64,000 nucleotides of DNA from Rickettsiales bacterium (GCA_031279085.1 JAITJD010000009.1:97232-161231); one strand, 5' to 3'; shown: positions 27,312 through 63,999, counted from the first letter of the stretch. The notes: generated from the letters alone by a model not told the origin. Numbers and translations: made by a program.

Positions 27312-30325
<3,014 letters not shown>

Positions 30326-30504: not shown

Positions 30505-30622
30505 GTTCTGGTGATTATTGAGCGGGAGCCACCCTCTGTTCCATCTCGAACCAGACAGGGAAACCCCGCATCGCCGATGGTACTTTGGCTTAAGCCACGG
30601 AAGAGTAGGTCGTCGCCAGAAC
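30505..30622 (+). rRNA. rrf: 5S ribosomal RNA
   Basis: GTTCTGGTGATTATTGAGCGGGAGCCACCCTCTGTTCCATCTCGAACCAGA...CCGATGGTACTTTGGC...AGAGTAGGTCGTCGCCAGAAC. Confidence 0.9.
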
Positions 30623-33985: not shown

Positions 33986-36298
33986 ATGAAGACTCGTAAT
34001 TTTGGCGAAATTTTCAAAAATGCGGCGGGCACAGTTTTTTTACTGGCGGCGGCATTTTTCGTATGCTCTACATTTTTATCGATGCGGGCGGTTTTTGCCG
34101 ATCCGGTCGCGCCGCAGAATCAGATTCTGACGAATACGGCCCAGGCCAGGCGCACCGGCGCGCAAGGTTCCGGCGCCACGCGCGGCAGCCCGCGCGCAAA
34201 CACCGGCGCCGCCAGCCGAACAGGGGGCGCGGTTTCAACACCTTCAAGCGCCGGCCGCACGGTTTCGGGCCGCTCGACGGCATCCCGCGGAACAGGCCAG
34301 GCAGCCTCGTCTACGGACAGAAATATCGTGTCGCGCGCGAATTCGGCTAATTCCAGGGGCACGGTCGCGCGTTCGGTCGTTGCGCGCAGTGGAACGACAG
34401 ATGCAAGCCAAGCGCGTGTTTCGCTTACCGGCAGCGCGATAAGGGGCAGCAAAACCAGCACCTCCGCATACACTTACCTTTCGAACAAATTATATACCGG
34501 GAACTATTCGAACATAATTGATTCCACGACAGGATTGATATCGGCGGAAGCATACAGCAATTGTCTGGAAAGCTATTACACCTGCATGGATGAAATCTGC
34601 ACCGCCCGCAACGCGGCTCAGCGGCGCTGCGCCTGCGCGGGGCGCGTAAAGGCTTTTGCGGACGCTGAATCTAAATTGGAAACAGCGAATGAAGAACTGA
34701 TAAAAGTTTCCGGCGAACTGGCGCTGCTGATCGCGACCAAGGGCAAGGATATCAGCGCGGCGTTCCAGCTGACCGATGCGGAAAAAGTCATGAACTGCGT
34801 GTCTTGGCAGGACGAGTCGACAAACGACCCGTATTGGAGCAAGGTAGAGTCTGGCGAAACTTTGACCGGCTTGCAGAAATGGTGCCAAAACCACATGTTG
34901 GGAACCGACTGCGCGCAACCGAAATATTGCTCAGAGTCCGGTAATACTTTCGGATTTGATATCAAAAATCTTAACGGCAGCAGCAGCGATATTTTAGCGT
35001 CTTTGAAATCTTGGGCCGATGCCAAGGATAAAACGCTTACAATTACAGGTTCCAACAATGATTCGCTCTTAGGCGCGTTTCAAAACACGATCGGCGCGCT
35101 AAGCGGGATGGGGATTGATATCACAAATATTGACGATACAAGCAACCTGAAAGATTCTCTGGCTGAAACCTGGGGGTACGAGCTGTTTGAATACGCGCAC
35201 AACAATGTCTGCAACCGCGTTTTGGATTCATGCTTTAACGGAATTTATGAAGCCTGCGGCACGCCTAAAAACGGGCAGAAATGTTATAATAACTCTGCGA
35301 GCTGCCCTTATAATTACAACAGCTATATCACCGTTAACAACAGCGGAACTTATGAATTGAATTTCGTGACGCCGAACACCGGAACCAGCACTAATTCCGC
35401 AACATGTTTCGGATATACCAGCACGGCCGGCGATCCTTATCAAAACTTGCGCGGACCGGTCGCGGATTCCCGCCGCAGCATATTGCAGAAATACGCGCTG
35501 GACGCGAATGCGGACTGCGACGCGTATGGCGAGCAATTAAAAACAACCGCGCAGAATATCGGATATCAAAAAGCTGCCGCCCAGCAGGCTTTGCAGCAAA
35601 AGCGGCTTGAATTCGCGCAAGAGGAAATCACGACAATCGCGTCCGACTTCCGCGCCGCCAAGAACAACTTTAACGAATGCCTGTCGGAATTGTATGACTG
35701 CTATACCACCCAGGAAACATCGAATACCTCATGGAGCACCAGCAGAATCAAAACATATTGCTCGCAGGTTTCCAATGTTGCGTCTTGCTATGAAACCATG
35801 GTTTGCGGCGCGCCGAACAATCTGCTGGAAGCGGTCATAACCAAAACTGTTGCGGGTACGACAACAACAAATAATATAACTACGAATACGACCGAAGCTG
35901 GCACCGCGTGCAGCAATACGACCGATGCGTCAACGAATACTTGCCGCAATGTTGTGACAATTGCCGAAGTTCTCAGCGGTTCTTATGCGTCCGGTGCGGT
36001 GGCGGGGTCATCTGTGGAAATGCGTGAGAAGTGCTTGCAAAATATCGGCATAGATGGCGTGCGGAATTGGTCCAGCAAAAATTCATCCGGCGGCTGGTCC
36101 GCAGAGAGCTGTCAAGCCGGCCAGCACCTGGAAGGGACAAGCTGCGTACCCGACACAAGAGCATGCACTCATACTGACTCAAATGCTGCGACGGCCCAAT
36201 TGGTATGGAACAGCAACACCGGCAGTTGGAGCGGATGTCAGCTATTGACTTGCAAAAGTGGCTATACGGTTTCAAGTGGCGCATGCGTTCAGATCTAA
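33986..36298 (+). CDS. large secreted cysteine-rich protein with an Arg/Ser/Gly/Thr-rich disordered N-region (paralog 2 of 3)
   Basis: Signal peptide ...VFLLAAAFFVCSTFLSMRAVFA. NCLESYYTCMDEICTARNAAQRRCAC and further C-x5-7-C-x4-6-C units. Cys-rich C-terminus. Confidence 0.7.
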   Translation: MKTRNFGEIFKNAAGTVFLLAAAFFVCSTFLSMRAVFADPVAPQNQILTNTAQARRTGAQGSGATRGSPRANTGAASRTGGAVSTPSSAGRTVSGRSTASRGTGQAASSTDRNIVSRANSANSRGTVARSVVARSGTTDASQARVSLTGSAIRGSKTSTSAYTYLSNKLYTGNYSNIIDSTTGLISAEAYSNCLESYYTCMDEICTARNAAQRRCACAGRVKAFADAESKLETANEELIKVSGELALLIATKGKDISAAFQLTDAEKVMNCVSWQDESTNDPYWSKVESGETLTGLQKWCQNHMLGTDCAQPKYCSESGNTFGFDIKNLNGSSSDILASLKSWADAKDKTLTITGSNNDSLLGAFQNTIGALSGMGIDITNIDDTSNLKDSLAETWGYELFEYAHNNVCNRVLDSCFNGIYEACGTPKNGQKCYNNSASCPYNYNSYITVNNSGTYELNFVTPNTGTSTNSATCFGYTSTAGDPYQNLRGPVADSRRSILQKYALDANADCDAYGEQLKTTAQNIGYQKAAAQQALQQKRLEFAQEEITTIASDFRAAKNNFNECLSELYDCYTTQETSNTSWSTSRIKTYCSQVSNVASCYETMVCGAPNNLLEAVITKTVAGTTTTNNITTNTTEAGTACSNTTDASTNTCRNVVTIAEVLSGSYASGAVAGSSVEMREKCLQNIGIDGVRNWSSKNSSGGWSAESCQAGQHLEGTSCVPDTRACTHTDSNAATAQLVWNSNTGSWSGCQLLTCKSGYTVSSGACVQI

Positions 36299-39581: not shown

Positions 39582-40793
39582 ATGCGGGCGGCGTTAATAT
39601 CAGTTTTATCTTTTTTTGCGTGTATGGAAGTGTTTGCAGGCGCAAGATTGCCGGTTGTGAATATTGCGGCCGGCTCTGTTTCAGCGCGCGCAGCTTTTGG
39701 CGAAACGCCCGAAAAGCACGAGCTTGCAATCGAAAATCAAACGAAAAAAAATATCGTTTCAAACAAAGATGTTTCCGCGCGCAGCGCGCGGCCGGCGGCT
39801 AATGACATATTATCCCCGCGCAAGCCCAGCGGCGATTTGTGGGCGCGTCTGGACAAGCCGCTGCGTCTGCCGGAGCCGCAAGAATTCTCCGTCGTGCAGT
39901 CTGACTTTGTCTTGCCGGAAGAAAGCCTGAAACCGCATGTCGCGGCGCGTGAAAAACCAAAAGCTACCTTGGCAGCTCTGCCGGTTGGCGGCAATCTGGA
40001 CGCTGAAATAGCAAATTTGGTCGAATTGCAGCGCAAAGCGGATGAAAGCGTTCGCGCTTCCAAAATCGAAAATCGAAAACCGGCGGTCAAAGCCCGCGCG
40101 CCGGCGGCCGACATTACTGATGGAGAAGAAATCACTTTATCGCGCGTCATTGTCCCCGCGGTTGAGGAGCCGAAAATCGTCCCCCGCCCCGCCGCCGGCA
40201 ATTCAAAGCTGACCGTTCGCGATGAAACCGATCTAAACGATTTTACAAAAATGTCGCCCGGAGAATTAAAAAAAGCTTTTAAAAAAACTTATTTGTCCGA
40301 GAACAAGCATTTGTCCACATACAAAATAGACGACCGCTTTGATGTCGCAAGCGATGTTTCATCAAGTATTGAAGGCTTTACATCAAGCCGCGATTTGTCG
40401 GAAGCCGACGATGTGCGCACCTTGGAAATAAAAATAGGATTTCGCGGCGACGATTCGGCCTTGTCGCGCGATAATTACAATTTGTTAAGCAAGTACGCCG
40501 GCGTCATCATCAGCAATCCGAAACGCGCGATACAGATATCCATTCCGGAACGCGCAACGCGCAACCTGGACGGCCGCAAGCTGGCCGCTCGCAGGCTGGC
40601 CATTGTAGAGCAGGTTTTGCGCGATACCGGTATTTCTGACCAGCGGATTATGCCGGTGCTGAGCCAGCGCAGCGACGACAGTTTCGTTCTGCGCGCGATA
40701 TCAAGCGACCAGTTTGAAACGATGACGCAGCAAAAACGCGATATGTTTGGCGACACTGTCGGCAAAAAGACTTACAAAAGCATGACTTGGTGA
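39582..40793 (+). CDS. secreted hypothetical protein with a degenerate OmpA-like C-terminal region
   Basis: Signal peptide MRAALISVLSFFACMEVFAGA. C-terminal ...RKLAARRLAIVEQVLRDTGISDQRI... is reminiscent of OmpA/MotB peptidoglycan-binding domains. Confidence 0.5.
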   Translation: MRAALISVLSFFACMEVFAGARLPVVNIAAGSVSARAAFGETPEKHELAIENQTKKNIVSNKDVSARSARPAANDILSPRKPSGDLWARLDKPLRLPEPQEFSVVQSDFVLPEESLKPHVAAREKPKATLAALPVGGNLDAEIANLVELQRKADESVRASKIENRKPAVKARAPAADITDGEEITLSRVIVPAVEEPKIVPRPAAGNSKLTVRDETDLNDFTKMSPGELKKAFKKTYLSENKHLSTYKIDDRFDVASDVSSSIEGFTSSRDLSEADDVRTLEIKIGFRGDDSALSRDNYNLLSKYAGVIISNPKRAIQISIPERATRNLDGRKLAARRLAIVEQVLRDTGISDQRIMPVLSQRSDDSFVLRAISSDQFETMTQQKRDMFGDTVGKKTYKSMTW

Positions 40794-50187: not shown

Positions 50188-50224
50188 GAATCCCTGATTT
50201 CTGCGACATTTGAACCTTTCGATT

Positions 50225-50668
50225 ATGCCTAATCCAAAGGGTGGTTTGTTATGTACAATCTTGGCTGTTGCGGTGTCGGTTAATACGGCAGAGGGAGCAA
50301 CAGGATATGCGTGTTATTCTTCGACGCCAACAAGTCCGACGAAGTGCAGTAGTTCTACATACACCCAACACATAGGCGGCTGGGCTGTTTTTGGCTGCAT
50401 CGGCAGCAATGTAAGATTATTTTACGGCGCCAGCGGTTGCTCTGCCACATCTGGAAGTTATGCTGTTGCAGGAAATCCGACATTTAGTTCCAGCGGCGGA
50501 CAGTATTGCTGGTGCAGGATGTACGGGACAGACTTGGGTTCTGTGTCGGGTTCGTGGGTCTTCACCTACGACTACGGCTCCGCGTCTTTTTGCGCGAGCA
50601 ATTGCGCTAACGACTGCGCGGCCGACGCCGGGAACGATTCCGACTTACGGTCGGCGCTGTTCAACTAA
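50225..50668 (+). CDS. small secreted cysteine-rich protein (paralog B)
   Basis: MPNPKGGLLCTILAVAVSVNTA signal peptide. Same Cys spacing as 13230-13676. Confidence 0.7.
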   Translation: MPNPKGGLLCTILAVAVSVNTAEGATGYACYSSTPTSPTKCSSSTYTQHIGGWAVFGCIGSNVRLFYGASGCSATSGSYAVAGNPTFSSSGGQYCWCRMYGTDLGSVSGSWVFTYDYGSASFCASNCANDCAADAGNDSDLRSALFN

Positions 50669-51628: not shown

Positions 51629-52330
51629 CTATCTTGCCGGAGAAATACGGAGCTCCACACGGCGGTTGGTAAGCCGTCCCATATCGTCTTGGGCGGCGAT
51701 CGGCCGCGCGGAGCCGCGCCCAACAACAAACATTCGCGCCGTATTTATCTTGCTGCGCGCAAAGAATATGGCCGTGCGCTGCGCCATGTCCAAAGACAGT
51801 GCTTTTGCGGCCTTTTTATCGGTAAACGAATCCGTGTATCCCGCGATTTCTATAAAAGACGCATCATATTTTTGCAAAATTTTAGCGATTATGCCCAAAG
51901 TATCCGCGCCCGTATCGGAAATATCGGGCGCTTCCAACTGCATCAGCGCGTCGCGCACCAAAATCACAAGCACATCCGTCCCCGCCCTTTGCACCAGTAT
52001 TCCAGGCTTGCGCAAACCATCGTAAAGCTGGTATTCCAAATTTTCCATATACCGCAGAACAACCTGATTCGCATCGGGCTCTTTTCCATAATTTCTGATT
52101 TCCGCTTCATCGGTCTTGATTCTTTCACCGCCCGCCCCCAGGTATACCGGCATTTTGGCGATTTTGGCTTCTGCCGTCATGTCTGAAAAGCTGGCGCCGC
52201 GCAAATATGCCGCCCAAGTATCGCGCGCAGGGGTGGAGTACCGCGCGCAGGCCCACAAACAAGCGGCGGCCAGCAGGCAGCAAGAAAGCATTGCGGCTTT
52301 TTTAAACAAAAACTCATTTATGATTTTCAT
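51629..52330 (-). CDS. OmpA-family peptidoglycan-binding lipoprotein
   Basis: Cys-containing signal (LLAAAC). C-terminal IEIAGYTDS...LSLDMAQRTA....VVGRGSARPIA...NRRVELRI. Confidence 0.75.
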   Translation of the reverse strand: MKIINEFLFKKAAMLSCCLLAAACLWACARYSTPARDTWAAYLRGASFSDMTAEAKIAKMPVYLGAGGERIKTDEAEIRNYGKEPDANQVVLRYMENLEYQLYDGLRKPGILVQRAGTDVLVILVRDALMQLEAPDISDTGADTLGIIAKILQKYDASFIEIAGYTDSFTDKKAAKALSLDMAQRTAIFFARSKINTARMFVVGRGSARPIAAQDDMGRLTNRRVELRISPAR

Positions 52331-52339
52331 ATTCGCCCG

Positions 52340-52798
52340 TTATTTCACTATGAATGAAATTTCATTTCCGCCGGTTGTCAAGCAATACGAATTTTGATTC
52401 GATTCATATCCGTTGACTCTGATTCTATCGGCCCAATCAAGATTGATGGTCGTGAAATAATCGCATTCGCCCTTTGACAGGCCGACAACATTTATGGAAA
52501 ATTCCAATCCGTCCGCGCTGGATTCGACAGACCAGCTTTCGCCCCCGATCGGCGCCTTGCCGTTTCTCAATGCGCCGGCTTTTACCAGATAATCGACAGA
52601 CACTCCGGAATAGTCGCCGCCGGCGGCCATTAATAATTTCGTATCCTTTGCGATCTGCGCCAGCTGCGCGGCCGCGATTGTTCTGACCTGGCGGGCGCGC
52701 ACCGTGTTGTATGACGCCACGACGCCGGCTGTCAGAATTGCGCCGATTGCGAGAACGCCTATCAGCTCTATCAGCGAGCGGCCATATTCCTGCCTCAT
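52340..52798 (-). CDS. type IV pilin-like protein (prepilin-type N-terminus)
   Basis: MRQEYG|RSLIELIGVLAIGAILTAGVV: short basic leader ending in Gly, Glu at +5, and a hydrophobic helix. Two C-terminal Cys. Confidence 0.65.
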   Translation of the reverse strand: MRQEYGRSLIELIGVLAIGAILTAGVVASYNTVRARQVRTIAAAQLAQIAKDTKLLMAAGGDYSGVSVDYLVKAGALRNGKAPIGGESWSVESSADGLEFSINVVGLSKGECDYFTTINLDWADRIRVNGYESNQNSYCLTTGGNEISFIVK

Positions 52799-52799: not shown

Positions 52800-54365
52800 T
52801 TATCCTCCTATTATCTCCGCGCCGTCAAACAGCGACAATGCGCTGGCAATCATGGGGTCTGACTGCATGTTTTCTTTTTTCTGCTCTATAACCGTCCGCT
52901 TGTTTTCAGATTCGTCAGCGCGTTCCAAAACCCATTCTTCTCCGGTTTTATCCAGCAGCCATTTGGCAAGCTTTTGCGCAAAACCCTGCTCGCCTTTTCT
53001 GTCAAAATATTTTATCTTCCGGCCTTCGATTTCCGATACTTCTATATTGCCGCTGTAATAAGAAAGCAATATCAATTCCTTGGATTCCTGCAAAGCGTTC
53101 GCCAAGTCGATCGCCGAGGAAATTTTTATAAACTTAGGTGCCGGCGGCTGGATGTCCGGCCCCGGCAGAATCTTGTCATCAGCAGCTTTCGCGCCTTTTG
53201 GGGCGCATTTCTCGCTTTGGTTTTCGCTCTGCGCCAGCAAAACGGAAATCGGCGGAATATCCGCCAAGTGCATCAGCCGGACAACCAGCATGTCAAAACA
53301 CTGCTTTGGATTCGCGGACGCCTGCATTTCAGAAACCGACGCCACCATAACCTGCCATAATCTGGACAAGGAGTTCAATGAAATTCTGGAATTAATTTCT
53401 TTTATCTGCTCGCGCTGGTCGGCGGTGTAGGGAAAGTTGGCAACATCTCCGGCGCGCAGCGCGGGATGTATCCTGGTCGCCCAATGCGTCCATTCCATCA
53501 TGTCGCCCAGCAGCATTGAAAGATCCGCGCCATTATTGTAAATATTATCGGCGGCGGCCAGCGCGGCGGCCGTGTCCCCGCTTAACAGAGTCTTCATAAA
53601 ATCCACGACGACATTGCGGTCGGCGCGTTTCAGCATATCAAGAACGGCAGCTTCGTCAACTTTGCCGCCGGTTTGCGAGATGGCTTGATCCAACAGGCTT
53701 AGGCCGTCGCGAACCGAGCCGTCAGCGGCGCGCGCAAGCAATTCGTTGGCGGCATCCGACATTTCTATTTTTTCTTGCCCCGCAATCCAGGCAAAATGCT
53801 TTTTCAAAGTCTGAACGGGAACGCGCACAAGGTCAAAACGTTGGCAGCGGGACAATATTGTCACGGGAACCTTGCGGATTTCTGTCGTCGCCAGGATAAA
53901 AATAACATGCGACGGAGGCTCCTCCAAAGTTTTTAGCAAAGCATTGAACGCATTGGTGGACAGCATGTGCACTTCGTCTATTATATAGACTTTATAGCGG
54001 CCGTTGGTGGGGCGGTATTGCGCGGCGTCCAGAATATCCCGCATATTGTCGACGCCGGTATGCGAAGCGGCGTCTATTTCCAGAACATCGATATGCTGGC
54101 CCGCCGCAATCGCGCGGCAGTTTTCGCACTGGCCGCACGGCGTCGCGGTCGCTTTGTCAGACGACTGGCAGTTCAGAGCCTTGGCAAGTATCCGCGCGGT
54201 GCTGGTTTTTCCAGTGCCCCGTATGCCGGTCAGCATATATGCATGCGCTATGCGCGATGTGTTTATCGCAGTCGTCAAAGTCTTGACAAGAACATCCTGC
54301 CCGATAAGAGAATTAAAATCCTGGCTGCGATACTTGCGAGCCAAAACTGTGTAATTGGTATCCAT
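52800..54365 (-). CDS. dnaX: DNA polymerase III subunit gamma/tau
   Basis: GIRGTGKTSTARILAKALNC, CGQCENC zinc module, YIIDEVHMLS, and SRCQRFDL. Confidence 0.92.
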   Translation of the reverse strand: MDTNYTVLARKYRSQDFNSLIGQDVLVKTLTTAINTSRIAHAYMLTGIRGTGKTSTARILAKALNCQSSDKATATPCGQCENCRAIAAGQHIDVLEIDAASHTGVDNMRDILDAAQYRPTNGRYKVYIIDEVHMLSTNAFNALLKTLEEPPSHVIFILATTEIRKVPVTILSRCQRFDLVRVPVQTLKKHFAWIAGQEKIEMSDAANELLARAADGSVRDGLSLLDQAISQTGGKVDEAAVLDMLKRADRNVVVDFMKTLLSGDTAAALAAADNIYNNGADLSMLLGDMMEWTHWATRIHPALRAGDVANFPYTADQREQIKEINSRISLNSLSRLWQVMVASVSEMQASANPKQCFDMLVVRLMHLADIPPISVLLAQSENQSEKCAPKGAKAADDKILPGPDIQPPAPKFIKISSAIDLANALQESKELILLSYYSGNIEVSEIEGRKIKYFDRKGEQGFAQKLAKWLLDKTGEEWVLERADESENKRTVIEQKKENMQSDPMIASALSLFDGAEIIGG

Positions 54366-54430
54366 TTGCTATTCCTTCTGGCACCAGAATAGCAAATATG
54401 CGCAGCATTTCAAGAGCTAAAACTTTTATT

Positions 54431-54718
54431 TCAAATCGACCAGAAAGTTTGCGATATTTGCTCGTCATCTTCCGCATTTTCCAAAGCGCTTTCTTGTTCG
54501 GCGACAAGCTTTTCCTTTGGGTCGCGGCAAGAATCTATCTTTCCCTGTTCACCATTAACAATACGGCCGTAATGCTCGGCCATTTGCAAAAGTCGCTCTC
54601 GTTCGATTTCATCTGATGTCTGACGCGCCTGATCCATGCATTGCTTTCGTTTCTGACGCAATTTATGACAGCGTTGAATCATAAGTCCAACAGACGTTTG
54701 ATTTTTTTTATTTTGCAT
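54431..54718 (-). CDS. hypothetical small charged protein
   Basis: ATG start but no clear SD. Lys/Glu/Gln-rich. Weak support. Confidence 0.3.
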   Translation of the reverse strand: MQNKKNQTSVGLMIQRCHKLRQKRKQCMDQARQTSDEIERERLLQMAEHYGRIVNGEQGKIDSCRDPKEKLVAEQESALENAEDDEQISQTFWSI

Positions 54719-54857
54719 AATTTTTCTTTAAAAGTAGAAATCGGATCACTTGGAGATGACCCATTAAACCTATCGACAAGTACAATATTACATCAAGCAA
54801 AAACAGATTGCAAGAAGTTTGTATAAAGTCTATAATCAAAATGTAGGGGGGAAGTTT

Positions 54858-56255
54858 GTGTATGTCAAAGTCAAGGAGTTTCAAATTGCAAACCGCGGCG
54901 GATGCGTCTCATCAGCCGGGAACTTCCTGCTGCAAGCATTGCTGGCTTTGGCTCTGATCATCGCATTTATGCCGTTTTTTACCCAAAAGCTGCTGGAACG
55001 CGACAAAAACCTGCAAATGCACGCGACAACCGTCCAAATCGATGCCGCGCAGACCGCAGCGCGGATTTATATTCGGGAAAATCTAGACTATATCAAATAT
55101 GATGCGACAATAATGTCCGACGACGGGTTCGCCGATGCTTTGGAGCCCTATGGACTGCCGCTGGGCTTTGTCCCCAAAACCGCTTTCGGCCAAGAAATAT
55201 CGCTGGTGATAAACAAAACGAAGGAAGAAATATCCGCCTATTTGGAATTGAAAGGCGGCAAATTGTCGCAATTGCAGCGGGCGGAACTGACGAAAAGGAT
55301 AGGTTTTTACGCTTCTCAGGAAAATGGCGGCATAAAAGTCGTCGTTCCAATAGACGAGATTTTTTCCGACATTGTCCGACGCGATGAGCCAAAACCCGAT
55401 GAAAACGGTTTTTTGTCGGATTTGAACCTGGGCGGGTTCGGATTGGAAAATCTGGGCGCTCTTATAGGGCGCAACGGAGAATTCGAATCCGCGCAAACGG
55501 GCGCGCTTTCGCTGTTCGGAATAGAAGACGGACGAAAAATACGCAGCAAAATCGGCGATATGACAGTGGGAAAAACCGTATTTCAAAGCAATATTGGCGA
55601 AGCGGCCTTGTTTGTCACGCGCGGCTCGCTGAACGCGCTCAATGTGTCCGCAAGAACAATATCAAAATTTGGCGACACGGGCGCGCTGGTATCTGAAATC
55701 GCATCCGTGTACGACCTTTCCATGACAGAAGGGCGCACCGGTTTCACCGGACCTTCGAAATGGGAAGTCAAAGGAAATCTTATCGCGGATAAAATCAGCT
55801 TTTCAACCGAGCGCCTGGAAATATCGTCTTTTATAAACGCGTCCCGAGGACAAGATGTTTACATAAATCCAAGCGATTTGGAATATAGTTCGCAAAGCGG
55901 AATAGAGGCCGGCATAATACGCGCCGCAAACATCACCCTGCGCGACCAGACATCCTCCGCTTTGGCCAGGGGGGAAACCGGCGCGGTGCTGCTGGATATA
56001 AGGCTGGCCGATACCTCCGTTCTTCCGGATGCGCTGGTTGACGGCATAAGCAACGACAGTTTTTTGATAATTGCAAAGCCGGCTGACGATGACGGCGGCA
56101 CTGTGGACTGCAAATCAATAATAACCAGCCTGGACGGCAGATATAATTCAAAATCTCTGTCGCAGCATATTGTTTGCCAGTATGTTTTCTGGCAACGTCT
56201 GGAAAAACGCATAGATATAAAAAAGTGCATAATGGAAGGAAAAAGTGGCTGCTGA
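54858..56255 (+). CDS. large pilin-like protein 1 (hydrophobic pilin-type N-helix, no Glu+5); start uncertain
   Basis: GGGGGGAAG SD upstream of GTG 54858 (TTG 54819 is also possible). ...AGNFLLQALLALALIIAFMPFF.... Mid-protein DLNLGGFG motif shared with the next two genes. Confidence 0.55.
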   Translation: MYVKVKEFQIANRGGCVSSAGNFLLQALLALALIIAFMPFFTQKLLERDKNLQMHATTVQIDAAQTAARIYIRENLDYIKYDATIMSDDGFADALEPYGLPLGFVPKTAFGQEISLVINKTKEEISAYLELKGGKLSQLQRAELTKRIGFYASQENGGIKVVVPIDEIFSDIVRRDEPKPDENGFLSDLNLGGFGLENLGALIGRNGEFESAQTGALSLFGIEDGRKIRSKIGDMTVGKTVFQSNIGEAALFVTRGSLNALNVSARTISKFGDTGALVSEIASVYDLSMTEGRTGFTGPSKWEVKGNLIADKISFSTERLEISSFINASRGQDVYINPSDLEYSSQSGIEAGIIRAANITLRDQTSSALARGETGAVLLDIRLADTSVLPDALVDGISNDSFLIIAKPADDDGGTVDCKSIITSLDGRYNSKSLSQHIVCQYVFWQRLEKRIDIKKCIMEGKSGC

Positions 56256-57438
56256 CAGATTCTTTTCGCGCATTGCGTCGGAACAGCGCGGCGCAAGCAT
56301 TCTTGAAATACTGCTGGTCATGGCAATAGTCGCGCTTTTGTCGCCGTTCATGTATAATCAGATAACGCGGGCTTCGAACGAAATCACGGATATAGCGACC
56401 GCAAAGCAAATTATGAAAACGCGCGAAGCCGCTTTGAACTTTGTGCGGTTAAATCAGGATCAATGGCCGGATTATGTGCAGATAAAGCTTGCCCAGGAAG
56501 AACTTGACGCCATAAACGATTCCGCGCATGCCGGATTTATAGACAAGTACATTGTTAAAGACGCGGCGGTAACCGACATTTATTTTGCGTTTAAAATCGG
56601 CGGCAGCTTGCTGCGATCGGCGCAAATAGCCAGAATCATCGGCGCGGATGCCGCAAGTGTGGATTCTGACGGCGTTGCGCGCAATATTTCATGGGCGGCG
56701 TCCGCGCCGGATTTTGCACCGGGCGACCTGGTGTATCGAATAAGTCATGATTTCAGGCTGGATAACAACTACAAATACCTTCGGCGAGTAACTTCGCCGG
56801 AAGACGATTCAAACCTTATGCAGCGGAATTTGAATATGGGAAAGTTCGACTCATACGGCGTGGGAACCGCATCCGCCGAAACCGGAAAATTTGAGGAAAT
56901 GTCGGCGGCTTTCATAGAAAGCGATGAACTGACAGCCACATCCGCTTATTTTTCCGGCGGCGCGACAATGGACGGCAATGTCGTCAAAATCGAATCCATG
57001 CGCGTCAGCGGCGACATAACGGGATTCCGCAATATCAATGCAAAAAAAATCAACCGCGAAGGCTTTTCTTTAACCGGCAGCATTATCGCCGATCGCGTAA
57101 GAATAAATAATTCCGTCAATGTCGGAGGAAACCTGAACCTGAAATCCGACACGATAAGAACAATTAGCGGTTTTGCCGGAATTGTAGCGCACTCGCTGGC
57201 CATATCCTTTTTAACCGCCGACGAGCTGACATTTGCAAACAAGTTCGGATTGACGGTTTCTGGCGAATTACTGATGTCCAGCACGGCACCGTTGAGAATA
57301 GGAAGTTGGAGCTTCCCTTCAATAACGCCACCAAGCTTTGCAAGCTTTGAGATGGCGCGCGCCAAAATTCCGGATACGCCGAATGCTTATGAATTTGATA
57401 AAATTATGAAAAGCGGTTGGAGAACGGACAATAACTGA
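56245..57438 (+). CDS. large pilin-like protein 2 (prepilin-type N-terminus)
   Basis: ...EQRG|ASILEILLVMAIVALLSPF with Glu+5. Overlaps the upstream gene by 11 nt. RNLNMGKF motif. Confidence 0.6.
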   Translation: MAADRFFSRIASEQRGASILEILLVMAIVALLSPFMYNQITRASNEITDIATAKQIMKTREAALNFVRLNQDQWPDYVQIKLAQEELDAINDSAHAGFIDKYIVKDAAVTDIYFAFKIGGSLLRSAQIARIIGADAASVDSDGVARNISWAASAPDFAPGDLVYRISHDFRLDNNYKYLRRVTSPEDDSNLMQRNLNMGKFDSYGVGTASAETGKFEEMSAAFIESDELTATSAYFSGGATMDGNVVKIESMRVSGDITGFRNINAKKINREGFSLTGSIIADRVRINNSVNVGGNLNLKSDTIRTISGFAGIVAHSLAISFLTADELTFANKFGLTVSGELLMSSTAPLRIGSWSFPSITPPSFASFEMARAKIPDTPNAYEFDKIMKSGWRTDNN

Positions 57439-58778
57439 TGAAACTGAACGAAAAATTTTTCAGCGCTCGCAAGTTTCGGCTTTCGACCCACGAACGCGGC
57501 GGAATGATGGCGGAATTATTGCTGACTCTGGCGCTGGTTGCCTTGGTGCTTCCTTTTATAATCAACTTTCAGAAATCTGGCATAGAGAGAGCGCAGAACA
57601 TAGCGACCGTCAAGGAAATGGAGCTGATGCAGACCGCGCTGGAACGATACATCGATTTTCACAAAAGCGAGCTTCTTGCGCCAATAGGAAAAAACATCAC
57701 GCGCGTGAAAGTGCCGGATTTAGAAGAATACGGCGCGCCGGCGCGCCCGATAGAAGAAAATAGTGAAAAGTTTCAAATACGAATCATCAAATCCAGCGAC
57801 CGCGAAGGACGTGCGACCTTGCAGGGCGTAATCGTGCTGAATGACCCGGACATATCGCCGATAAAAACCAGGGAAATCGTAAATATCGGCGGCAGCAAGA
57901 TGGGGTTTGTGGAAAAAGGCAAGGCTTTCGGAGCTTTCGGGACATGGCGCGCAAACACATCGGATCTGGGGATAGGCGGAAAAAGCGGAATCGTCAAAAC
58001 AACCAAAACAACATTGGACAAAGAGCAGTACTTGTGGCGAATCCCGTCTGAAAACACGTCTGACGCCACGATGCTTTCCTCTTTGAATCTGGCCGGGCAC
58101 AATATCGTGGACGCGAAATTCACGGACGGAAGATACGCGCTGTTTGAAGAGATTCTGAAATCAAAAATATTCGCCGCCGGCAAAATTATATTTCAGAACA
58201 GAACGACCATAGACAAGAATTTGAAAACCGGCGATGCGATCGTCGCCGGAACATTGTCCGCCGATTCCAGAAACTTTGATATCTACGGAACGCTTTCGCT
58301 TTCAGACACCGCGAAATTTTCAAGCTTCACGGCGGACAAACTTTGGGTTGGCAACTTAAATCTGTCGGGAATATCCATAGCCGCCGAAACCGGCAAGCCG
58401 GCGGTTTTAAAAGTCAATCAAACCATGGACATGGTTTCCGGACGCATCAGCGCCATGTTCGCGACAGTGGGATTTACAGGCTCGCTGACGCCAAAGCTGG
58501 TGATAAGAAGCAGGATTGAAGATTCGGCTAATTCTGGATATTTTTGGGATGCAAGCACAAGTTCCGCCGCCGCCAGATTTTCAGATGTATACATCGCAGA
58601 GCTTAATAGAATGGCCGCAATATCGGCATCCAAGGAAGCGGGCGAAAAGACCGCCAGCGGACAGATTTTCAAAGCCGTCGTCACAAACAAGAACGCGACC
58701 GCTTCGGATTTTATCAACGCGATATCCGAAATACAAAACAAAGTCCGAATAAAATATCGCCAGTTGAATTTGGAATAA
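57438..58778 (+). CDS. large pilin-like protein 3 (prepilin-type N-terminus)
   Basis: ...HERG|GMMAELLLTLALVALVLPF. ATGA overlap with the upstream gene. SLNLAGHN motif. Confidence 0.6.
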   Translation: MKLNEKFFSARKFRLSTHERGGMMAELLLTLALVALVLPFIINFQKSGIERAQNIATVKEMELMQTALERYIDFHKSELLAPIGKNITRVKVPDLEEYGAPARPIEENSEKFQIRIIKSSDREGRATLQGVIVLNDPDISPIKTREIVNIGGSKMGFVEKGKAFGAFGTWRANTSDLGIGGKSGIVKTTKTTLDKEQYLWRIPSENTSDATMLSSLNLAGHNIVDAKFTDGRYALFEEILKSKIFAAGKIIFQNRTTIDKNLKTGDAIVAGTLSADSRNFDIYGTLSLSDTAKFSSFTADKLWVGNLNLSGISIAAETGKPAVLKVNQTMDMVSGRISAMFATVGFTGSLTPKLVIRSRIEDSANSGYFWDASTSSAAARFSDVYIAELNRMAAISASKEAGEKTASGQIFKAVVTNKNATASDFINAISEIQNKVRIKYRQLNLE

Positions 58779-58801
58779 AACATGATAAGCTAGCGGGGAT
58801 A

Positions 58802-59305
58802 ATGAAGATAACATGCGATTTTTGCAAGACCGAATACTCGGTGGGCCGCGCGCCGGTCGCGCCGGTCCAATGCGCGGTATGCGGGCATGTCTGGACAGTC
58901 GCGCGCCAGGCCCGCGGGCATACGTTTTTGGTTTTTGCGGCGGCCGTTTGCGCCCTGCTGGCCGCCGCCGTGTTTTCATTCGCGATAATAATAAACCACC
59001 GGGCGGAAAGCTTGAAGAAAAAACCGCTGGCCGCGCATATTTCCGAAGTGCATTCCGTAATAGACGCATTCGGCGCGCCGCATTTTGTTGTCAGCGGGAA
59101 AGTGATCAACAGGTCGGAAAAAATCTACGGGGTTCCCGACCTTGTAATAACATCGCGCGACGATGCGGGCAATATCGTCGCCCAGCAAAAGTTCATGCCG
59201 TCCGCAACGCTCCTGGATGCCGGCGAGGAAGTGAAATTCTCGCACACATTATCGGCTTCGTCCGAAAGCGTCAAAAAAATAACAGTCGAATTAAGCGACC
59301 AGTGA
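58802..59305 (+). CDS. MJ0042-type zinc-ribbon membrane protein (DUF3426-like C-domain)
   Basis: MKITCDFCKTEYSV...VQCAVCGHVW zinc ribbon, a TM segment, then a ~90-aa beta-rich domain. Confidence 0.65.
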   Translation: MKITCDFCKTEYSVGRAPVAPVQCAVCGHVWTVARQARGHTFLVFAAAVCALLAAAVFSFAIIINHRAESLKKKPLAAHISEVHSVIDAFGAPHFVVSGKVINRSEKIYGVPDLVITSRDDAGNIVAQQKFMPSATLLDAGEEVKFSHTLSASSESVKKITVELSDQ

Positions 59306-59319
59306 AATAGGTAAAAAAA

Positions 59320-59766
59320 ATGAAAAAATATTTATTCTTTATCTTTTATTCTTTATTCTTTGTTTTTTGCGCCCAAGGCGCGGAACGTGTCAGCATATTT
59401 TCAACCAGCGCCGACTGGGAGGCGATATCAGGCCTTCGTTTTTTTCAATCGGCAATTGATTTCCAGCCGGATTCAAAATTGATAGGCAAAGGCCTTGAAC
59501 TGTATTTTCTTGATAATTTTCCATGCTTTGGGCAGACCGACAGCACCCAGATTTGGCTTGGCGCGAACAGCGACAATGGCAGAAGAATCAGGATTGTCTG
59601 CCTGTTTGCTCCTGAGAAAGTATATTTCGCATGGCGCAATGCCGCCCGCGATGCCAACCAGGACAAAACGACCGGAATTTTGGAATGTCCGGTAAAAGGA
59701 GAATCCGCTTTCAAGATAAATTTGTCCGACTGCGTCAAAGGCAAGGAATGGAAAGAGTACAAATAG
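59320..59766 (+). CDS. secreted hypothetical protein
   Basis: Signal peptide MKKYLFFIFYSLFFVFCAQGA. No recognisable motif. Confidence 0.5.
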   Translation: MKKYLFFIFYSLFFVFCAQGAERVSIFSTSADWEAISGLRFFQSAIDFQPDSKLIGKGLELYFLDNFPCFGQTDSTQIWLGANSDNGRRIRIVCLFAPEKVYFAWRNAARDANQDKTTGILECPVKGESAFKINLSDCVKGKEWKEYK

Positions 59767-59817
59767 CCGAAAGTCCGCAGGCGACTGTGGAATATTGACT
59801 AATGATTGTGGACTAAA

Positions 59818-60783
59818 ATGACTGAGACAAGAATTTTTACAGCGGGCGCCGAAAATGCGGGCCAGCGGCTGGACAAGTTTCTGGCGCTGCAAATGCCGGA
59901 ATTTTCACGCAGCGAAATCCAAAAATTCAAAGCGCAAAGCGCGAACGGCAAAGCGCCGCTAAAACATTCATATAAATTGCGCGCAAATGACATCATAGAA
60001 GTTGAAATTCCAAAAAATATTCCAGATGATTGCGCGCTCAGTTTTGAACATTGCACTTTGGACTTAAATATTCTGCATGAAGATGACGACATAATAGTAA
60101 TAAACAAGCCGCGCGGCATCGTCATGTATCCGTCCGCTGGAAACAGGGACGGCACTTTGGTGCAAAATGTGCTGGCGCATGCAAATTTGTCGCGGTTGGG
60201 CGGCGCGACGCGCCCGGGGGTTGTTCACAGATTGGACAAAGACACCAGCGGAGTGGTGATTTTTGCAAAATCCGACGCGGCGTACCGCGAATTGGTCAAA
60301 ACTTTTGCGGCGCACGATTTGACCAGAAGCTATATCGCTTTCGTCTGGGGCGTGCCGAATTGGGAAAGCGCGGACATCAGCGGGAATATAGCAAGGTCTT
60401 CGCGAAACAGGCAGAAAATGACAATGGTCAGGCATGGCGGCAAAGAAGCGCATACTCAGGTTGATGTCATGAATGTTTGGGGCGGCGTTAAAGTGTCGCA
60501 GCTTCGCTGCACTCTGCTGACCGGTCGCACGCATCAAATCAGGGTTCATTTGTCGGCGCATGGATTTCCGGTATTATGCGATCCGGTTTACGGCCGCGGC
60601 TCGGCCAGATTGGGCAACGTGAAGAATCCTGAATTGCTGGAATTTTTGAAAACTCACAACGGCCAGATGCTGCATGCGGAGGTTTTGGAGCTAAAACATC
60701 CGACAACCGGCCAGCAATTGCGCTTTAAATCGCGCCTGCCGGAAGACATGCAGGAGTTGAAGGGGATTTTAAATCAATCATGA
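59818..60783 (+). CDS. rluD: RluA/RluD-family 23S rRNA pseudouridine synthase
   Basis: S4-like N-terminus (GQRLDKFLA), catalytic HRLDKDTSGVVIFAKSD, and ...GRTHQIRVH.... ATG 59818 is preferred over TTG 59806. Confidence 0.85.
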   Translation: MTETRIFTAGAENAGQRLDKFLALQMPEFSRSEIQKFKAQSANGKAPLKHSYKLRANDIIEVEIPKNIPDDCALSFEHCTLDLNILHEDDDIIVINKPRGIVMYPSAGNRDGTLVQNVLAHANLSRLGGATRPGVVHRLDKDTSGVVIFAKSDAAYRELVKTFAAHDLTRSYIAFVWGVPNWESADISGNIARSSRNRQKMTMVRHGGKEAHTQVDVMNVWGGVKVSQLRCTLLTGRTHQIRVHLSAHGFPVLCDPVYGRGSARLGNVKNPELLEFLKTHNGQMLHAEVLELKHPTTGQQLRFKSRLPEDMQELKGILNQS

Positions 60784-60867: not shown

Positions 60868-63800
60868 ATGTATTTTCTTAAAAAGTCATTTGGTTTTATT
60901 GTTGTTTTTGCCATGATTCCGGCCGTCTTTGCCGCAACCGCCCGTCCAAGCATAATTGCCTCGGCTTCATCAAGGATGCCGACGATGACAACTTCGATTT
61001 CAGGATTACTGACGACAAATACCAGCTCAGCCGCATCATTAATCGCCGACGCCGAGTGCATTGACGCATATACCAGCTGCGCCAAGGGCGCGGATGTTTG
61101 CGGCCCGGATTTTGAAGAATGCACGAACAAAACTCTGTTTTATGCCAAAAAGCCGCAATGCGCCAGCACTTTGATGCAGTGCAAGACAACCGGCATCACC
61201 AGCTTGTTCGGCACCAGCGCCCAGACGGCTTTCTCCAACAAGAATTCAAACGGCGAATATGTGTACCCGACCGCAGGCAGCGTCCTGGGACAGCTGATTG
61301 AGGCCGCGTATATCAACAATCGCTATGACACCAGCACCTGCGTGAAAAGGTACACCAGCTGCTTGAAAAAAGACGATGTCTGCGGCGCGGATTTTGAACT
61401 TTGCACCAGCAACACCGAATTCAAAAAGCAAAAGCTGTTCTGCGAATCCACATTGGCGCGCTGCCAGGCCGACGGCTTGACAGAATTGTTCGGCACCACC
61501 ACAACCGCTGCAAATCCGACGGCCAACAGCCGCCTTGGAATCATGATTTCCGAAGGCGCCGCGCTGGCTGCGGTGAATGCGGTCGCCACCTGCTATAAGG
61601 TTGCGGACCAGTGCATTCTGAACGCCTGCGCAACCAATCCCTATAAGTGCAAGGAAGGCAGCGAACAGACCATAGTGGATATTACCGAGACAATCAATAA
61701 TACCGACGGCACGACCACGACGACCAGCTCGCAAAATATTATGGGCGCGGTCAATCGCAACGAAATATCGGGCTTTATAAAGAATGCGTGCCAGGACACG
61801 ATCGGCGCGAACAAATTCTGCTACGCGACATTTTTGGGCAACGGCGCGATGCCGACAAATGCCCAGCTGCGCGATGAAGAAAACAAAGACGCCATTTACA
61901 GCGAGGCTTATTCTTCCCGCATGAACGATTCAATGAAGTCCAAGATTGATGCTCTGATAGAAAAGTTTGATAAAAAGACCAAGCAGCACTGCCAGGATAC
62001 CATCGTCAATTGCGCGATGCGCTCCTGCGGCGAGGGCAGCGGCGCGGCCTGCTATGCTTCCGCCTTCAACTCTTCCAACACCGTCAAGGGCGTGACGAAT
62101 CCGTCGACCATGTCGAACATCAAATACGGTTGCGAAGCCGTCGTCAACAACGATACATCATGCAAGTATGCCTCGGCTACATTTACGACGGCGGGCGTTA
62201 TCAACTTCCTGGAAAGCAGCCTGTTTGACACTTTGTTCACAGCTCCGGACAATACGGATGTCAGCAAGCCGGACGCGGTTGGCGCGGTTGCGGCGCTGAA
62301 TGCCCGGCTGTCGACTTCTTATAACCAGGCGGCGCTGGATCAGATGAAAAAGCAGTGCCAGACAGTCGCGACCGGATGCGTCAGAACCATGTGCGGCAAC
62401 GAATACACCAACTGTTATCGCAACCGCACGGATGTTTCCTCGACATTGACGAATACCGGCGAGGCAGCCTTTGACAAAAGCATGAACAAAGTCGGCGGCG
62501 TTCTGGATTACACGATTGTTCTGGGTCTGTGCCTGAACACGGTGAAGATCAACCCCGTATGCGAAGAGCATATCAAGGCCGAAGCCGCGCGCCGCAGCGC
62601 CAGCAGCAGCTATACCGCGAATTCCTGGGGCAGCGCCGGCAGCACGCGCGACGGCTGGCTGGGCGCGGGCGTGTATTCGGCTACTGGTAGTACTAGCGAG
62701 TATCAGGATATAGACGCGGACGGCAATATGCTGTGCACCACATCCAAAGACAACGGCGGGCAGATTGGCCGCTGCGACGATATCAGCGGAACATACATAT
62801 ATCCCTATATGATTTCCGAAACTTCGTACAAGATTGAACAGGCGGAGCGCACGGTATTCCGCGACTTGGTCTATGATTTGGAAAAAGAAGCCCAGGCGCA
62901 ATACAACGCCAAGCTGACCAAGCAGCAGAATATGTGCATATCCAGCAACAACGGCGGAATTGTCGGAACCAAGGACACGGGCAGCACATTCATGTGGGTG
63001 AAGTTGAGAAACAACAAGGTTCCGAAATCTTACGCGACTGCGGGCTTGAAAGCAAATGACTTCGTGACCAGCAATGAGTTGTACGGAAGCTTTTGCCGGA
63101 TTCGCGTGGTTTTGCAATCGGATGAAAAACATATTCAGGATGCGATTTCTGCGGGCAAGGATTGGGGCATCGCATACTTTGCGGCAGGCGATCCATTCAC
63201 ATGCGGCAGCTGGATACCACAGAGAGCTCTGGAAGAAATTTCCAGTTCTGTTGGAAAAGAAGCGGAAGATGAAAAGCGCAGGGGCGATGACAGAACCCGC
63301 GGCTGGATAACCGCGCTTGGCTCAGTTGTTGGCGGCGTGGGCGGCGGAATAGGCATGAATGCGCTGCAAAAAGGTTCCTTGGGCGGTTTGCTGGGAACAA
63401 CGAACAAGACGGACACCGTATCAACAAACGTTTCTCGCTGCCAGAGTTTTGTAAAGAATTACAAGTCCCAACCAGACGGAGTAAAAGCAGAATCGATAGG
63501 AACGGCTGCTATAAATGCTGCAAGAGAAATAGGGGATTTGAATAGTGATATAGGGTTTATTGAAACTGCTGTGGGGGATGCGGCGACGGCGGAGAATAGG
63601 GCGAAGAGTGCGGAGAATTTGGCGACGCTAGCGACGGCGGAGAATAAGGCGACGGTGGATACGGCGGCGAGAGATGAGAGGTTGGCGGCGACGAATGCGA
63701 AAAATGTAGCAAACCAAGCGATGGATACATTATCAGACCTTTGCAAATCAGAGGCGACTAGCGCAAAATCAAGCAGCAGTAAAACTATTGGAAATCTGGT

Positions 63801-63999
63801 TGGTGCCGGTGTAGGTGCGGTTGCCGGCGGCGTGCTGGGGTATACTATAACAAAGAGCGTTCAAGACGCCGCAGCCGAAGGCGCGAATGCCGAGGCTCGA
63901 AAAGCTTGGATGGAAGAAGTCGGCAATCACATACGCTGCTATATAGGCTCTGACGAGGTCGGCTCATACGGCGATATGATCAGCACTGAAATGGAATAA
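60868..63999 (+). CDS. giant secreted cysteine-rich protein (paralog 3 of 3) with two C-terminal Gly-zipper hydrophobic segments
   Basis: Signal peptide MYFLKKSFGFIVVFAMIPAVFA. Tandem ~90-aa Cys modules (CIDAYTSCAKGADVCGPDFEECT / CVKRYTSCLKKDDVCGADFELCT). ITALGSVVGGVGGGIGMNAL and IGNLVGAGVGAVAGGVLGYTI lie near the C-terminus. Confidence 0.7.
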   Translation: MYFLKKSFGFIVVFAMIPAVFAATARPSIIASASSRMPTMTTSISGLLTTNTSSAASLIADAECIDAYTSCAKGADVCGPDFEECTNKTLFYAKKPQCASTLMQCKTTGITSLFGTSAQTAFSNKNSNGEYVYPTAGSVLGQLIEAAYINNRYDTSTCVKRYTSCLKKDDVCGADFELCTSNTEFKKQKLFCESTLARCQADGLTELFGTTTTAANPTANSRLGIMISEGAALAAVNAVATCYKVADQCILNACATNPYKCKEGSEQTIVDITETINNTDGTTTTTSSQNIMGAVNRNEISGFIKNACQDTIGANKFCYATFLGNGAMPTNAQLRDEENKDAIYSEAYSSRMNDSMKSKIDALIEKFDKKTKQHCQDTIVNCAMRSCGEGSGAACYASAFNSSNTVKGVTNPSTMSNIKYGCEAVVNNDTSCKYASATFTTAGVINFLESSLFDTLFTAPDNTDVSKPDAVGAVAALNARLSTSYNQAALDQMKKQCQTVATGCVRTMCGNEYTNCYRNRTDVSSTLTNTGEAAFDKSMNKVGGVLDYTIVLGLCLNTVKINPVCEEHIKAEAARRSASSSYTANSWGSAGSTRDGWLGAGVYSATGSTSEYQDIDADGNMLCTTSKDNGGQIGRCDDISGTYIYPYMISETSYKIEQAERTVFRDLVYDLEKEAQAQYNAKLTKQQNMCISSNNGGIVGTKDTGSTFMWVKLRNNKVPKSYATAGLKANDFVTSNELYGSFCRIRVVLQSDEKHIQDAISAGKDWGIAYFAAGDPFTCGSWIPQRALEEISSSVGKEAEDEKRRGDDRTRGWITALGSVVGGVGGGIGMNALQKGSLGGLLGTTNKTDTVSTNVSRCQSFVKNYKSQPDGVKAESIGTAAINAAREIGDLNSDIGFIETAVGDAATAENRAKSAENLATLATAENKATVDTAARDERLAATNAKNVANQAMDTLSDLCKSEATSAKSSSSKTIGNLVGAGVGAVAGGVLGYTITKSVQDAAAEGANAEARKAWMEEVGNHIRCYIGSDEVGSYGDMISTEME

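Follow-up and report, generated by a model that had tools for sequence, protein, structure and literature searches.

As reported, PilV of the thin pili encoded by IncI1/IncI2 plasmids (R64, TP114) is a protein of 400–500 amino acids (aa) with a class III signal, and IncI PilV serves as the adhesin that chooses recipient cells through its C-terminal domain (PMC9045228). A pilin domain with a large C-terminal extension (420–520 aa in total) is also found in TcpB of the toxin-coregulated pilus (TCP) of Vibrio cholerae and in CofB of the CFA/III pilus of enterotoxigenic Escherichia coli. Both are located at the pilus tip, initiate assembly, and are trimeric, CofB as a homotrimer (Kawahara 2016, cited in PMC5207764), and their first subunit is independent of Glu5. 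That Glu5 is dispensable in the first subunit has been argued for TcpB and seen in GspK (PMC5207764), the distal member of GspH-I-J-K, which is the tip complex of the type II secretion system (T2SS) and draws several minor pilins from one operon. In this study, we analyzed a stretch of 64,000 nucleotides (nt) from a Rickettsiales bacterium (GCA_031279085.1 JAITJD010000009.1:97232-161231; this whole stretch is hereafter the window), in which three adjoining genes, A, B, and C, occupy positions 54858–58778. A preliminary description had interpreted their products as prepilin-type paralogs of unusual size, without assembly genes nearby; the prepilin-type paralogs stand, whereas the size has precedents and the genes are not orphans. 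Profile comparisons place A, B, and C in the PilV family of type IV minor pilins, as remote homologs of PilV. We consider it likely that they are anciently duplicated members of this family and belong to a chromosomal, vertically inherited R64/IncI-type type IVb pilus of the bacterial order Rs-D84.

Relation of A, B, and C to plasmid PilV

The three genes are as follows, with a slash after Gly-1 of the prepilin-type signal:

54858..56255, plus strand: gene A, encoding a PilV-like minor pilin of 465 aa with an invariant Gln at +5 and conserved Cys 418, 440, 457, and 465 in the C-terminal domain
56245..57438, plus strand: gene B, encoding a PilV-like minor pilin of 397 aa with the signal ...QRG/ASILE
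57438..58778, plus strand: gene C, encoding a protein of 446 aa, the closest of the three to PilV, with the signal ...ERG/GMMAE

Genes A and B overlap by 11 nt and genes B and C by 1 nt (ATGA), and the three abutting or overlapping open reading frames (ORFs) lie exactly where the preliminary description had placed them. Their products are only about 20% identical to each other, which indicates that the duplication is ancient, and pairwise BLASTP matches are marginal. Profile alignment with hhalign connects B with C (98.9%, E 2e-17, 236 columns), A with C (97.1%, E 6e-11), and A with B (92.1%, E 6e-7). These alignments extend over the first ~230 residues and include the (D/N/S)LN(L/M)G motif, so that hhalign upholds the proposed paralogy and the common mid-protein motif.

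To compare the three families with PilV, an alignment of seven plasmid PilV proteins (418–496 aa) was used as the reference. Family C aligns with it over 308 columns (99.1%, E 5e-19), followed by family B (97.3%, E 2e-11) and family A (95.9%, E 6e-9). The segment LYRxxVPGxPELNRMxTxIDMGGNDIxNA of the PilV consensus corresponds in position to YLWRVPSxNxxDATMLSxLNLGGHDIxNA in family C and to YLHRxTSGEDxLNVMxRDLNMG in family B. Similarly, a tblastn search with Citrobacter PilV gave 85 matches in the lineage loci and the window; the inspected ones all fall on C, except for one weak match on B, and the match in the window covers 57747–58127 of gene C (E 2e-8). In the opposite direction, a tblastn search of 72,556 plasmids with a C ortholog gave matches in 26 records; the 15 matches listed are, without exception, on annotated pilV genes. 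Moreover, the A-family profile, searched against 1.84 billion representative proteins, independently finds a PilV-type protein (P0447) that carries LYRRAVPGQPELNRM.

The Pfam model of the PilV constant region, Shufflon_N (PF04917), detects only 4 of 103 C orthologs at E ≤0.01, which explains why these proteins are annotated as hypothetical. Of three C orthologs whose scores were checked, two pass the cut-off of 27.5 bits (27.8 and 27.6) and one has 27.0 bits, while A, B, and C of the window show no match to the model at E up to 1. Thus, the PilV family is far broader than its Pfam model captures. The size of the proteins has precedents as well, since PilV of IncI plasmids (431–496 aa), TcpB (423 aa), and CofB are likewise large (PMC5207764, PMC9045228).

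Prepilin signals and predicted folds

Full-length homologs at 50–70% identity were found for each of the three proteins (866, 755, and 337 matches). Among 120 listed homologs per family, the signal motif was aligned in 111 (A), 116 (B), and 105 (C) sequences, and Gly-1 is invariant in all of them. Position +5 is Gln in all 111 A sequences, Glu in 113 of the 116 B sequences, and Glu in 100 of the 105 C sequences, the remaining B and C sequences having Asp. Pro+18 is invariant in the three families and Phe+19 nearly so; the median leader length is 6 residues in A, 15 in B, and 17 in C. In the window, a G-x4-[E/Q] pattern followed by 15 uncharged residues occurs in 4 of 172 ORFs (stop-to-stop, ≥100 aa), namely A, B, C, and a small pilin described below. 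Because it is conserved across orthologs, the signature of A, B, and C is not a chance occurrence. The N-termini quoted in the preliminary description, their class III (prepilin-type) character, and the Glu+5 claimed for two of the three proteins (Glu in B and C, Gln in A) were all recovered in this way. The general prepilin models score B at 12.2 bits (N_methyl PF07963, cut-off 21.2) and 9.7 bits (TIGR02532, cut-off 16.3), with no match for A and C.

Family A is narrow, with 87 matches to its profile among the 1.84 billion representatives. Divergent members of the family keep the first ~30 mature residues, Gln5 among them, nearly unchanged while their C-terminal halves have diverged, and still more distant relatives have Glu5. 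The absence of Glu5 in A has a precedent in distal subunits of the GspK type (PMC5207764).

The N-termini could also be uncleaved signal anchors, in which case A, B, and C would be pilin-derived inner-membrane periplasmic proteins, for example of a polar scaffold organized by the ZitP-like protein encoded downstream. No peptidase or secretin was found in the window or in 2.66 Mb of lineage sequence, as such anchors would have it; the locus is placed among envelope genes (skp and ompA-like, with lpxD and fabZ nearby in relatives), B has a weak bactofilin-like signal (14.6 bits), and conservation is even along the whole proteins. However, Gly-1 and Glu/Gln+5, invariant in hundreds of orthologs, are determinants of cleavage and filament docking and not of anchoring. 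A conserved ATPase, platform protein, PilO, and PilP are moreover retained in genomes of ~1 Mb, and a canonical small pilin co-occurs. We regard uncleaved anchors as quite unlikely.

Based on AlphaFold models, the N-terminal ~170–190 residues of B and C are predicted to adopt a pilin-like fold, in which an alpha-1 helix of ~55 residues packs on a beta-sheet. For B, the model comprises a helix (residues 19–73) and a beta-sheet (78–169), with a predicted local distance difference test (pLDDT) score of 82–92 for residues 30–170 and a mean of 68. For C, it comprises a helix (22–74) and an antiparallel sheet (87–188), with a mean pLDDT of 62. The best Foldseek match of B in the PDB is a T2SS minor pseudopilin from the XcpGHIJK model (probability 0.94, target-normalised template modeling score 0.56, E 0.09). 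Sequence-profile searches of the PDB with A, B, and C returned only a likeness of the N-terminal helix to geopilin (E 0.005) and noise.

In A, B, and C, conservation of the C-terminal half is as strong as that of the pilin domain, which suggests either a conserved ligand or a largely structural role. The beta-type character ascribed to these halves by the preliminary description was not confirmed, AlphaFold confidence being low in this part. A beta-helix of the bactofilin kind, indicated by the 14.6-bit match in B and a match in one C ortholog, was not adopted, as AlphaFold gave no confident solenoid.

Inheritance, neighboring genes, and pilus machinery

The following features surround genes A, B, and C:

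51629..52330, minus strand: OmpA-family peptidoglycan-binding lipoprotein (Pfam OmpA, 6e-10)
52340..52798, minus strand: small PilS-like type IV pilin of 152 aa, the candidate major pilin, with the signal MRQEYG/RSLIE
54431-54718, minus strand: DUF4167-like protein of 95 aa (22.9 bits, cut-off 25)
54808..54836, plus strand: promoter-like site TTGCAA-17-TATAAT upstream of gene A, matching 10 of 12 consensus positions
58802..59305, plus strand: ZitP-like bitopic protein of 167 aa with an N-terminal CxxC...CxxC zinc ribbon, a transmembrane segment, and a periplasmic DUF3426/FxLYD-like domain
59320..59766, plus strand: p148, a small exported protein of 148 aa with a Sec-type signal peptide and no family match

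Bacteria of the Rs-D84/Enterousia group are uncultured, widespread in animal and human guts, and thought to live off other cells. In a scan of a genome collection, relatives of B were present in 235 species-level genomes, and 80 of these were kept for the synteny counts. All 80 are metagenome-assembled genomes from gut, rumen, termite, or digester samples, mostly named Candidatus Enterousia, "Alphaproteobacteria bacterium," or "Rickettsiales bacterium," and a circular chromosome among them measures 958,618 bp. The host lineage is the reduced-genome gut order Rs-D84 (Candidatus Enterousia-like Alphaproteobacteria), for which a 2025 survey (PMC12306168) describes genomes of <1 Mbp that lack biosynthetic pathways, and a lifestyle that is probably an obligate dependence on a partner. 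Three sequences labelled "uncultured Muribaculaceae bacterium" (L015, OZ246409.1), "Bacteroides fragilis" (L082, CAVGNU010000002.1), and "Lachnospiraceae bacterium" (P0135) carry the locus in full synteny; they probably stem from Rs-D84 and were given a wrong label or bin.

In essentially all 80 loci, the gene order is OmpA-like, small pilin, and dnaX on the minus strand, followed by A, B, C, ZitP-like, p148, and rluD on the plus strand. A and B are present in all 80 loci; C, the ZitP-like gene, and p148 in 78 each; and the small pilin in 76. The housekeeping flanks dnaX and rluD are constant, and the GC content of the A-B-C locus is the same as that of its surroundings. We found no sfx-like repeats, repeat array, or inverted cassettes in 54300–60000, and no recombinase or integrase in the conserved A-B-C neighborhood. 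A shufflon was rejected on the lack of repeats and recombinase, and a mobile element as the current state was rejected on the conserved flanks and the uniform GC. Collectively, A-B-C is a vertically inherited core locus and not a mobile element.

The same data bear on the idea that the genes are remnants of a decaying IncI-like conjugative element, that is, frozen-shufflon copies of pilV with no current function. The PilV homology agrees with this, and conjugation-type genes are indeed present, with a VirD4-like protein in the window and VirB3/VirB4 elsewhere in the lineage. However, the ORFs are intact at 50–70% identity in nearly all of the 80 kept genomes (of 235), the dnaX and rluD flanks recur everywhere, GC is as in the surroundings, and neither sfx-like repeats nor a recombinase was found at the locus; in addition, paralogs of ~20% identity point to an ancient duplication. 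A functionless remnant is hardly credible.

The small pilin carries a conserved signal of its own. Among its orthologs, the motif was aligned in 73 of 76 sequences, in which Gly-1, Ser+2, Glu+5, Gly+8, and Ala+11 are invariant and the leader has 6 residues; the signal in the lineage is ESG/RSLIE. PilS (PF08805), the family of type IVb major pilins, is matched at E ≤0.01 by 36 of 61 orthologs, the best at 2.6e-5. The ortholog of Enterousia L034 scores 17.7 bits for PilS, below the cut-off of 22 bits, and the window protein matches N_methyl alone (18.8 bits, cut-off 21.2); a profile search gave a weak match to TcpA (E 0.033). The co-occurrence of A-B-C with this pilin, which the preliminary description had proposed to check, is seen as synteny in 76 of 80 loci. 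The OmpA-like gene is the one immediately downstream of this pilin, and the two are adjacent in about 75 of 80 loci; that the lipoprotein is part of the pilus system is uncertain and suggested by linkage only.

The downstream genes are closely spaced, with 23 nt from C to the ZitP-like gene and another 14 nt to p148; judged by this spacing, the five genes from A to p148 appear to be transcribed as a single unit. The public gene call begins gene A at GTG 54858 (P0121, 465 aa), and a longer ORF begins at the TTG at 54819. A G-rich ribosome-binding site and the promoter-like site at 54808–54836, which lies inside the 139-nt divergent intergenic region, precede this GTG. The promoter-like site is a consensus match only, as 15 such sites occur in the region, compared with 8.0 ± 3.2 in shuffled sequences. 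The DUF4167-like gene is divergent from gene A and holds the same position in 77 of 80 loci.

The gene that follows C had been described as a zinc-ribbon/DUF3426-like membrane protein, and this holds, with a transmembrane segment and domain scores that are sub-threshold or borderline: 25.1 bits for Zn_ribbon_4 (cut-off 30.3), 20.8 for MJ0042_CXXC (20.9), and 22.2 for DUF3426 (27.7). The L034 ortholog passes MJ0042_CXXC with 23.9 bits, and the gene directly follows C in 78 of 80 genomes. In Caulobacter, the DUF3426 domain of ZitP is needed for polar pilus biogenesis (PMC5182063), and by analogy the ZitP-like protein may plausibly position the pilus machine. A zinc ribbon, a transmembrane segment, and a periplasmic DUF3426 appear to be common to this protein and to ZitP of Caulobacter, also an alphaproteobacterium. 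In contrast, the protein here has 167 aa instead of 311, none of its domain scores exceeds the cut-offs, a deacetylase partner resembling CpaM was not seen, and the associated pilus is of type IVb here and of the Tad type there. The possibility that A, B, or C is the ZitP partner CpaM was rejected, as the polysaccharide-deacetylase domain of CpaM (PMC5182063) is absent from them, and Tad pseudopilins (TadE/F/G) were rejected for want of any TadE-like match.

The p148 protein carries the conserved motif FSTSTDWEAVTGL...LELYFLDGFPC. A role in the pilus system is inferred for it from linkage only, and one may speculate that it is an accessory or a cargo comparable to TcpF/CofJ. Alternatively, the machinery could work mainly as a T2SS- or TCP-like secretion piston, with A, B, and C as a pseudopilus cap that engages a substrate such as p148 and not as an adhesin. 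Large minor pilins of type IVb systems do serve secretion (TcpB-TcpF and CofB-CofJ; PMC5207764), p148 is a constant neighbor that carries a Sec signal, conservation of the C-terminal domains is uniform, the best Foldseek match of B is a T2SS pseudopilin, and some homologs are annotated as "type II secretion system protein" or "PulG." Against these points, the specific family signals are all of the R64 type (PilO, PilP, PilS, and PilV) and none is Gsp. The NCBIfam scores of B are 20.7 for GspG (cut-off 88.85), 14.4 for GspK (130), and 12.6 for GspH (80), arising in the N-terminal helix only; no GspC, L, M, or D was seen, and p148 is unlike any known substrate. A piston of this kind appears unlikely.

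The preliminary description had noted that assembly genes are missing, and for the window this is correct. Pfam scans of ORFs ≥150 aa and several shorter ones in 50–60 kb detected no T2SSE, T2SSF, secretin, or A24 peptidase, and neither tblastn with plasmid pil proteins nor a six-frame scan of the window for the A24 GxGD motif revealed assembly genes. The statement does not extend to the lineage, in which a pilOPQR block is conserved elsewhere, and the small pilin lies 2 kb upstream of A-B-C. In Enterousia L031 and L034, four pil genes adjoin skp, about 5–9 kb upstream of A-B-C. They encode a PilO-like protein (434 aa; PAP_PilO 32.0 bits, cut-off 26.7), a PilP-like lipoprotein (233 aa; TIGR03021 31.0 bits, below the cut-off of 34.65), a PilQ-like ATPase (542 aa; T2SSE 1.6e-61; 29.7% identity to plasmid PilQ), and a PilR-like platform protein (T2SSF 2.8e-23), and their order pilO-pilP-pilQ-pilR is the R64 order, as also seen on plasmids. 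With the ATPase as the probe, relatives were found on 165 metagenomic contigs, 80 of which were kept (72–91% identical). Every one of the 33 loci of ≥15 kb has the complete block, flanked by lpxK/lpxC on one side and gyrB on the other, with A-B-C absent from the nearest 10 kb, so that in most genomes the machinery forms a core locus of its own, apart from A-B-C. The search that the preliminary description had suggested thus yielded the ATPase and the platform protein in the lineage, and, in the window and the 2.66 Mb of lineage sequence covered, neither the secretin nor the prepilin peptidase.

VirB3/VirB4 genes lie upstream of pilOPQR in 14 of the 33 loci (e.g., L109:5-2719). The window itself encodes a VirD4/TraG-type coupling protein of a type IV secretion system (T4SS) at 3804–6131 on the minus strand (T4SS-DNA_transf, 2.8e-51). 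From these two observations, this lineage of ~1 Mb genomes keeps a VirB-type T4SS besides the type IVb pilus.

Several other features of the window were recorded. Directly after rluD in 68 of 80 loci, and hence part of the syntenic block, lies a gene for a Cys-rich protein of >1043 aa (60868–63999, continuing beyond the window end) with 38 Cys, a signal peptide, Cys-rich repeated modules, and a Gly-rich C-terminal part; it has no Pfam match and is 62–67% identical in the three best-matching loci. A second Cys-rich protein with a signal peptide (152 aa; 50210–50668, plus strand) is encoded by a gene that has skp and a MerR-like gene as neighbors. Neither family models nor tblastn against 160 related loci matched this protein, and it appears to be strain- or species-specific. 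Large ORFs of 713, 238, 770, 471, 312, and 403 aa without a Pfam match are located at 8861–11740, 33986–36298, 22315–24526, and 39582–40793; the 713- and 770-aa proteins, the two tested, have no PDB match, and the 713/238-aa pair recurs near A-B-C in 16–28 related genomes. Positions 16001–22000 have a GC of 0.31–0.41, compared with ~0.48 elsewhere, and few long ORFs. A complete rRNA operon (16S-tRNA-Ile-23S-5S) occupies 25130–30621; in its spacer, ARAGORN finds tRNA-Ile(GAT) only, with no tRNA-Ala in the ~470 nt before the 23S gene.

A possible pilus tip and its meaning for Rs-D84

Similar to PilV of the R64 and TP114 thin pili, A, B, and C carry class III signals, are of comparable length, and have homologous N-terminal ~200–300 residues. 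Both kinds of system also combine a small pilin, PilS-like in Rs-D84, with PilO-PilP-PilQ-PilR in the same gene order. In contrast to plasmid PilV, A, B, and C are passed on vertically with the chromosome in alphaproteobacterial genomes of ~1 Mb, and the genes of the system are spread over two loci or more. Where plasmids have a single gene whose C-termini are swapped by a shufflon, Rs-D84 has three fixed paralogs, with no Rci and no sfx repeats; their C-terminal halves are unrelated to the PilV cassettes and uniformly conserved, one paralog (A) has Gln5, and Pro+18-Phe+19 is invariant. On plasmid paNv_CAN7 of Arsenophonus nasoniae (L005), two genes (273 and 418 aa) are annotated as pilV and flank a "phage tail protein" gene, and more than one PilV per system thus also exists outside Rs-D84. 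The unusual part is that a ~1 Mb genome has three fixed PilV paralogs in tandem on its chromosome, one of which carries Gln5.

No match to TcpB and CofB, which likewise join a pilin domain to a large C-terminal extension, was detected for A, B, and C in sequence or fold. TcpB and CofB are also single homo-oligomerising minor pilins, whereas three paralogs are present in Rs-D84, and any trimer would hypothetically be a heterotrimer. The GspH-I-J-K complex resembles the locus in having several minor pilins per operon and a distal subunit that, like A, lacks Glu5, but A, B, and C are all large and mutually paralogous, and their machinery is of the PilO/PilP/PilS type.

On the basis of these systems, we propose that A, B, and C probably form the adhesive pilus tip by which partner-dependent bacteria hold other cells. 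A prepilin peptidase would cleave the three proteins after the invariant Gly-1, and the mature subunits would associate by their N-terminal helices to build, on the PilR platform, a heteromeric complex that initiates the pilus or forms its tip. A, with Gln at +5, would be the first and hence the distal subunit, because a first subunit has no N-terminal amine above it that needs neutralization by Glu5. The PilQ-like ATPase would then polymerize the PilS-like pilin beneath the tip complex. By analogy with IncI PilV, the C-terminal halves of A, B, and C, displayed at the tip, may bind the surface of the partner cell through a conserved ligand there. Positioning of the machine may fall to the ZitP-like protein, with p148 as a possible accessory or secreted partner. 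The whole would serve as an attachment organelle for the biosynthetically crippled Rs-D84 bacteria.

Several points weigh against this model. Direct Pfam/NCBIfam scans of A, B, and C of the window gave nothing above threshold, AlphaFold confidence is moderate overall (mean pLDDT 62–68), and Foldseek with the C model returned no significant match. Heteromer formation and the tip position of A, B, and C are drawn by analogy with the systems above. Uniform conservation of the C-terminal halves is not typical of an adhesin that binds receptors and is under diversifying pressure, and it fits a structural role too. The pilOPQR block was seen in relatives, coverage of the window's own contig being limited to the window. 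The requirement for a prepilin peptidase and a secretin is unproven, and neither (PilU, PilN) was detected in the window and 2.66 Mb of lineage sequence; as the latter consists of two regions of about 20 kb per genome, that is, two loci, their absence is uninformative. Tblastn searches with plasmid PilN, PilU, PilM, PilS, PilO, and PilP gave no match even for genes known to be present, and hence were too insensitive. The A24 motif scan produced false positives only, and permissive Pfam and PDB scans of the large unannotated proteins of the window were negative for secretin and peptidase.

A further reading takes the T4SS into account. The system may be a domesticated conjugative-plasmid pilus for "mating-pair stabilisation" that became the core organelle of host attachment in Rs-D84. 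Three fixed PilV paralogs would have taken the place of the shufflon, and an obligate A/B/C heterotrimer would form the tip, with the Gln5 subunit A distal, recognize a conserved structure on the partner's surface, and hold the partner during exchange of DNA or proteins by VirB/VirD4. We regard this as possible but doubtful. If true, it would be an alphaproteobacterial counterpart of the type IV pili that are needed for the episymbiosis of Saccharibacteria.

Returning to the PilV-family minor pilins of an R64-like pilus, what is new here is that gut Alphaproteobacteria with reduced genomes have, on the chromosome, a PilV module of such a type IVb pilus that is triplicated and has no shufflon. 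Type IV pili are not credited to Rs-D84 in the 2025 survey of the order, whose sole mention of such pili is assigned to another lineage (PMC12306168). About nine core genes that were formerly "hypothetical" are now assigned to one R64-like pilus: A, B, C, the small pilin, pilO, pilP, pilQ, pilR, and possibly the ZitP-like gene. These genes are concrete targets for metaproteomics, imaging, and enrichment. Moreover, a PilV adhesin that was triplicated and fixed, with one copy carrying Gln5, constitutes a natural experiment in which ideas on the stoichiometry of the tip complex and on the role of residue 5 could be tested directly.

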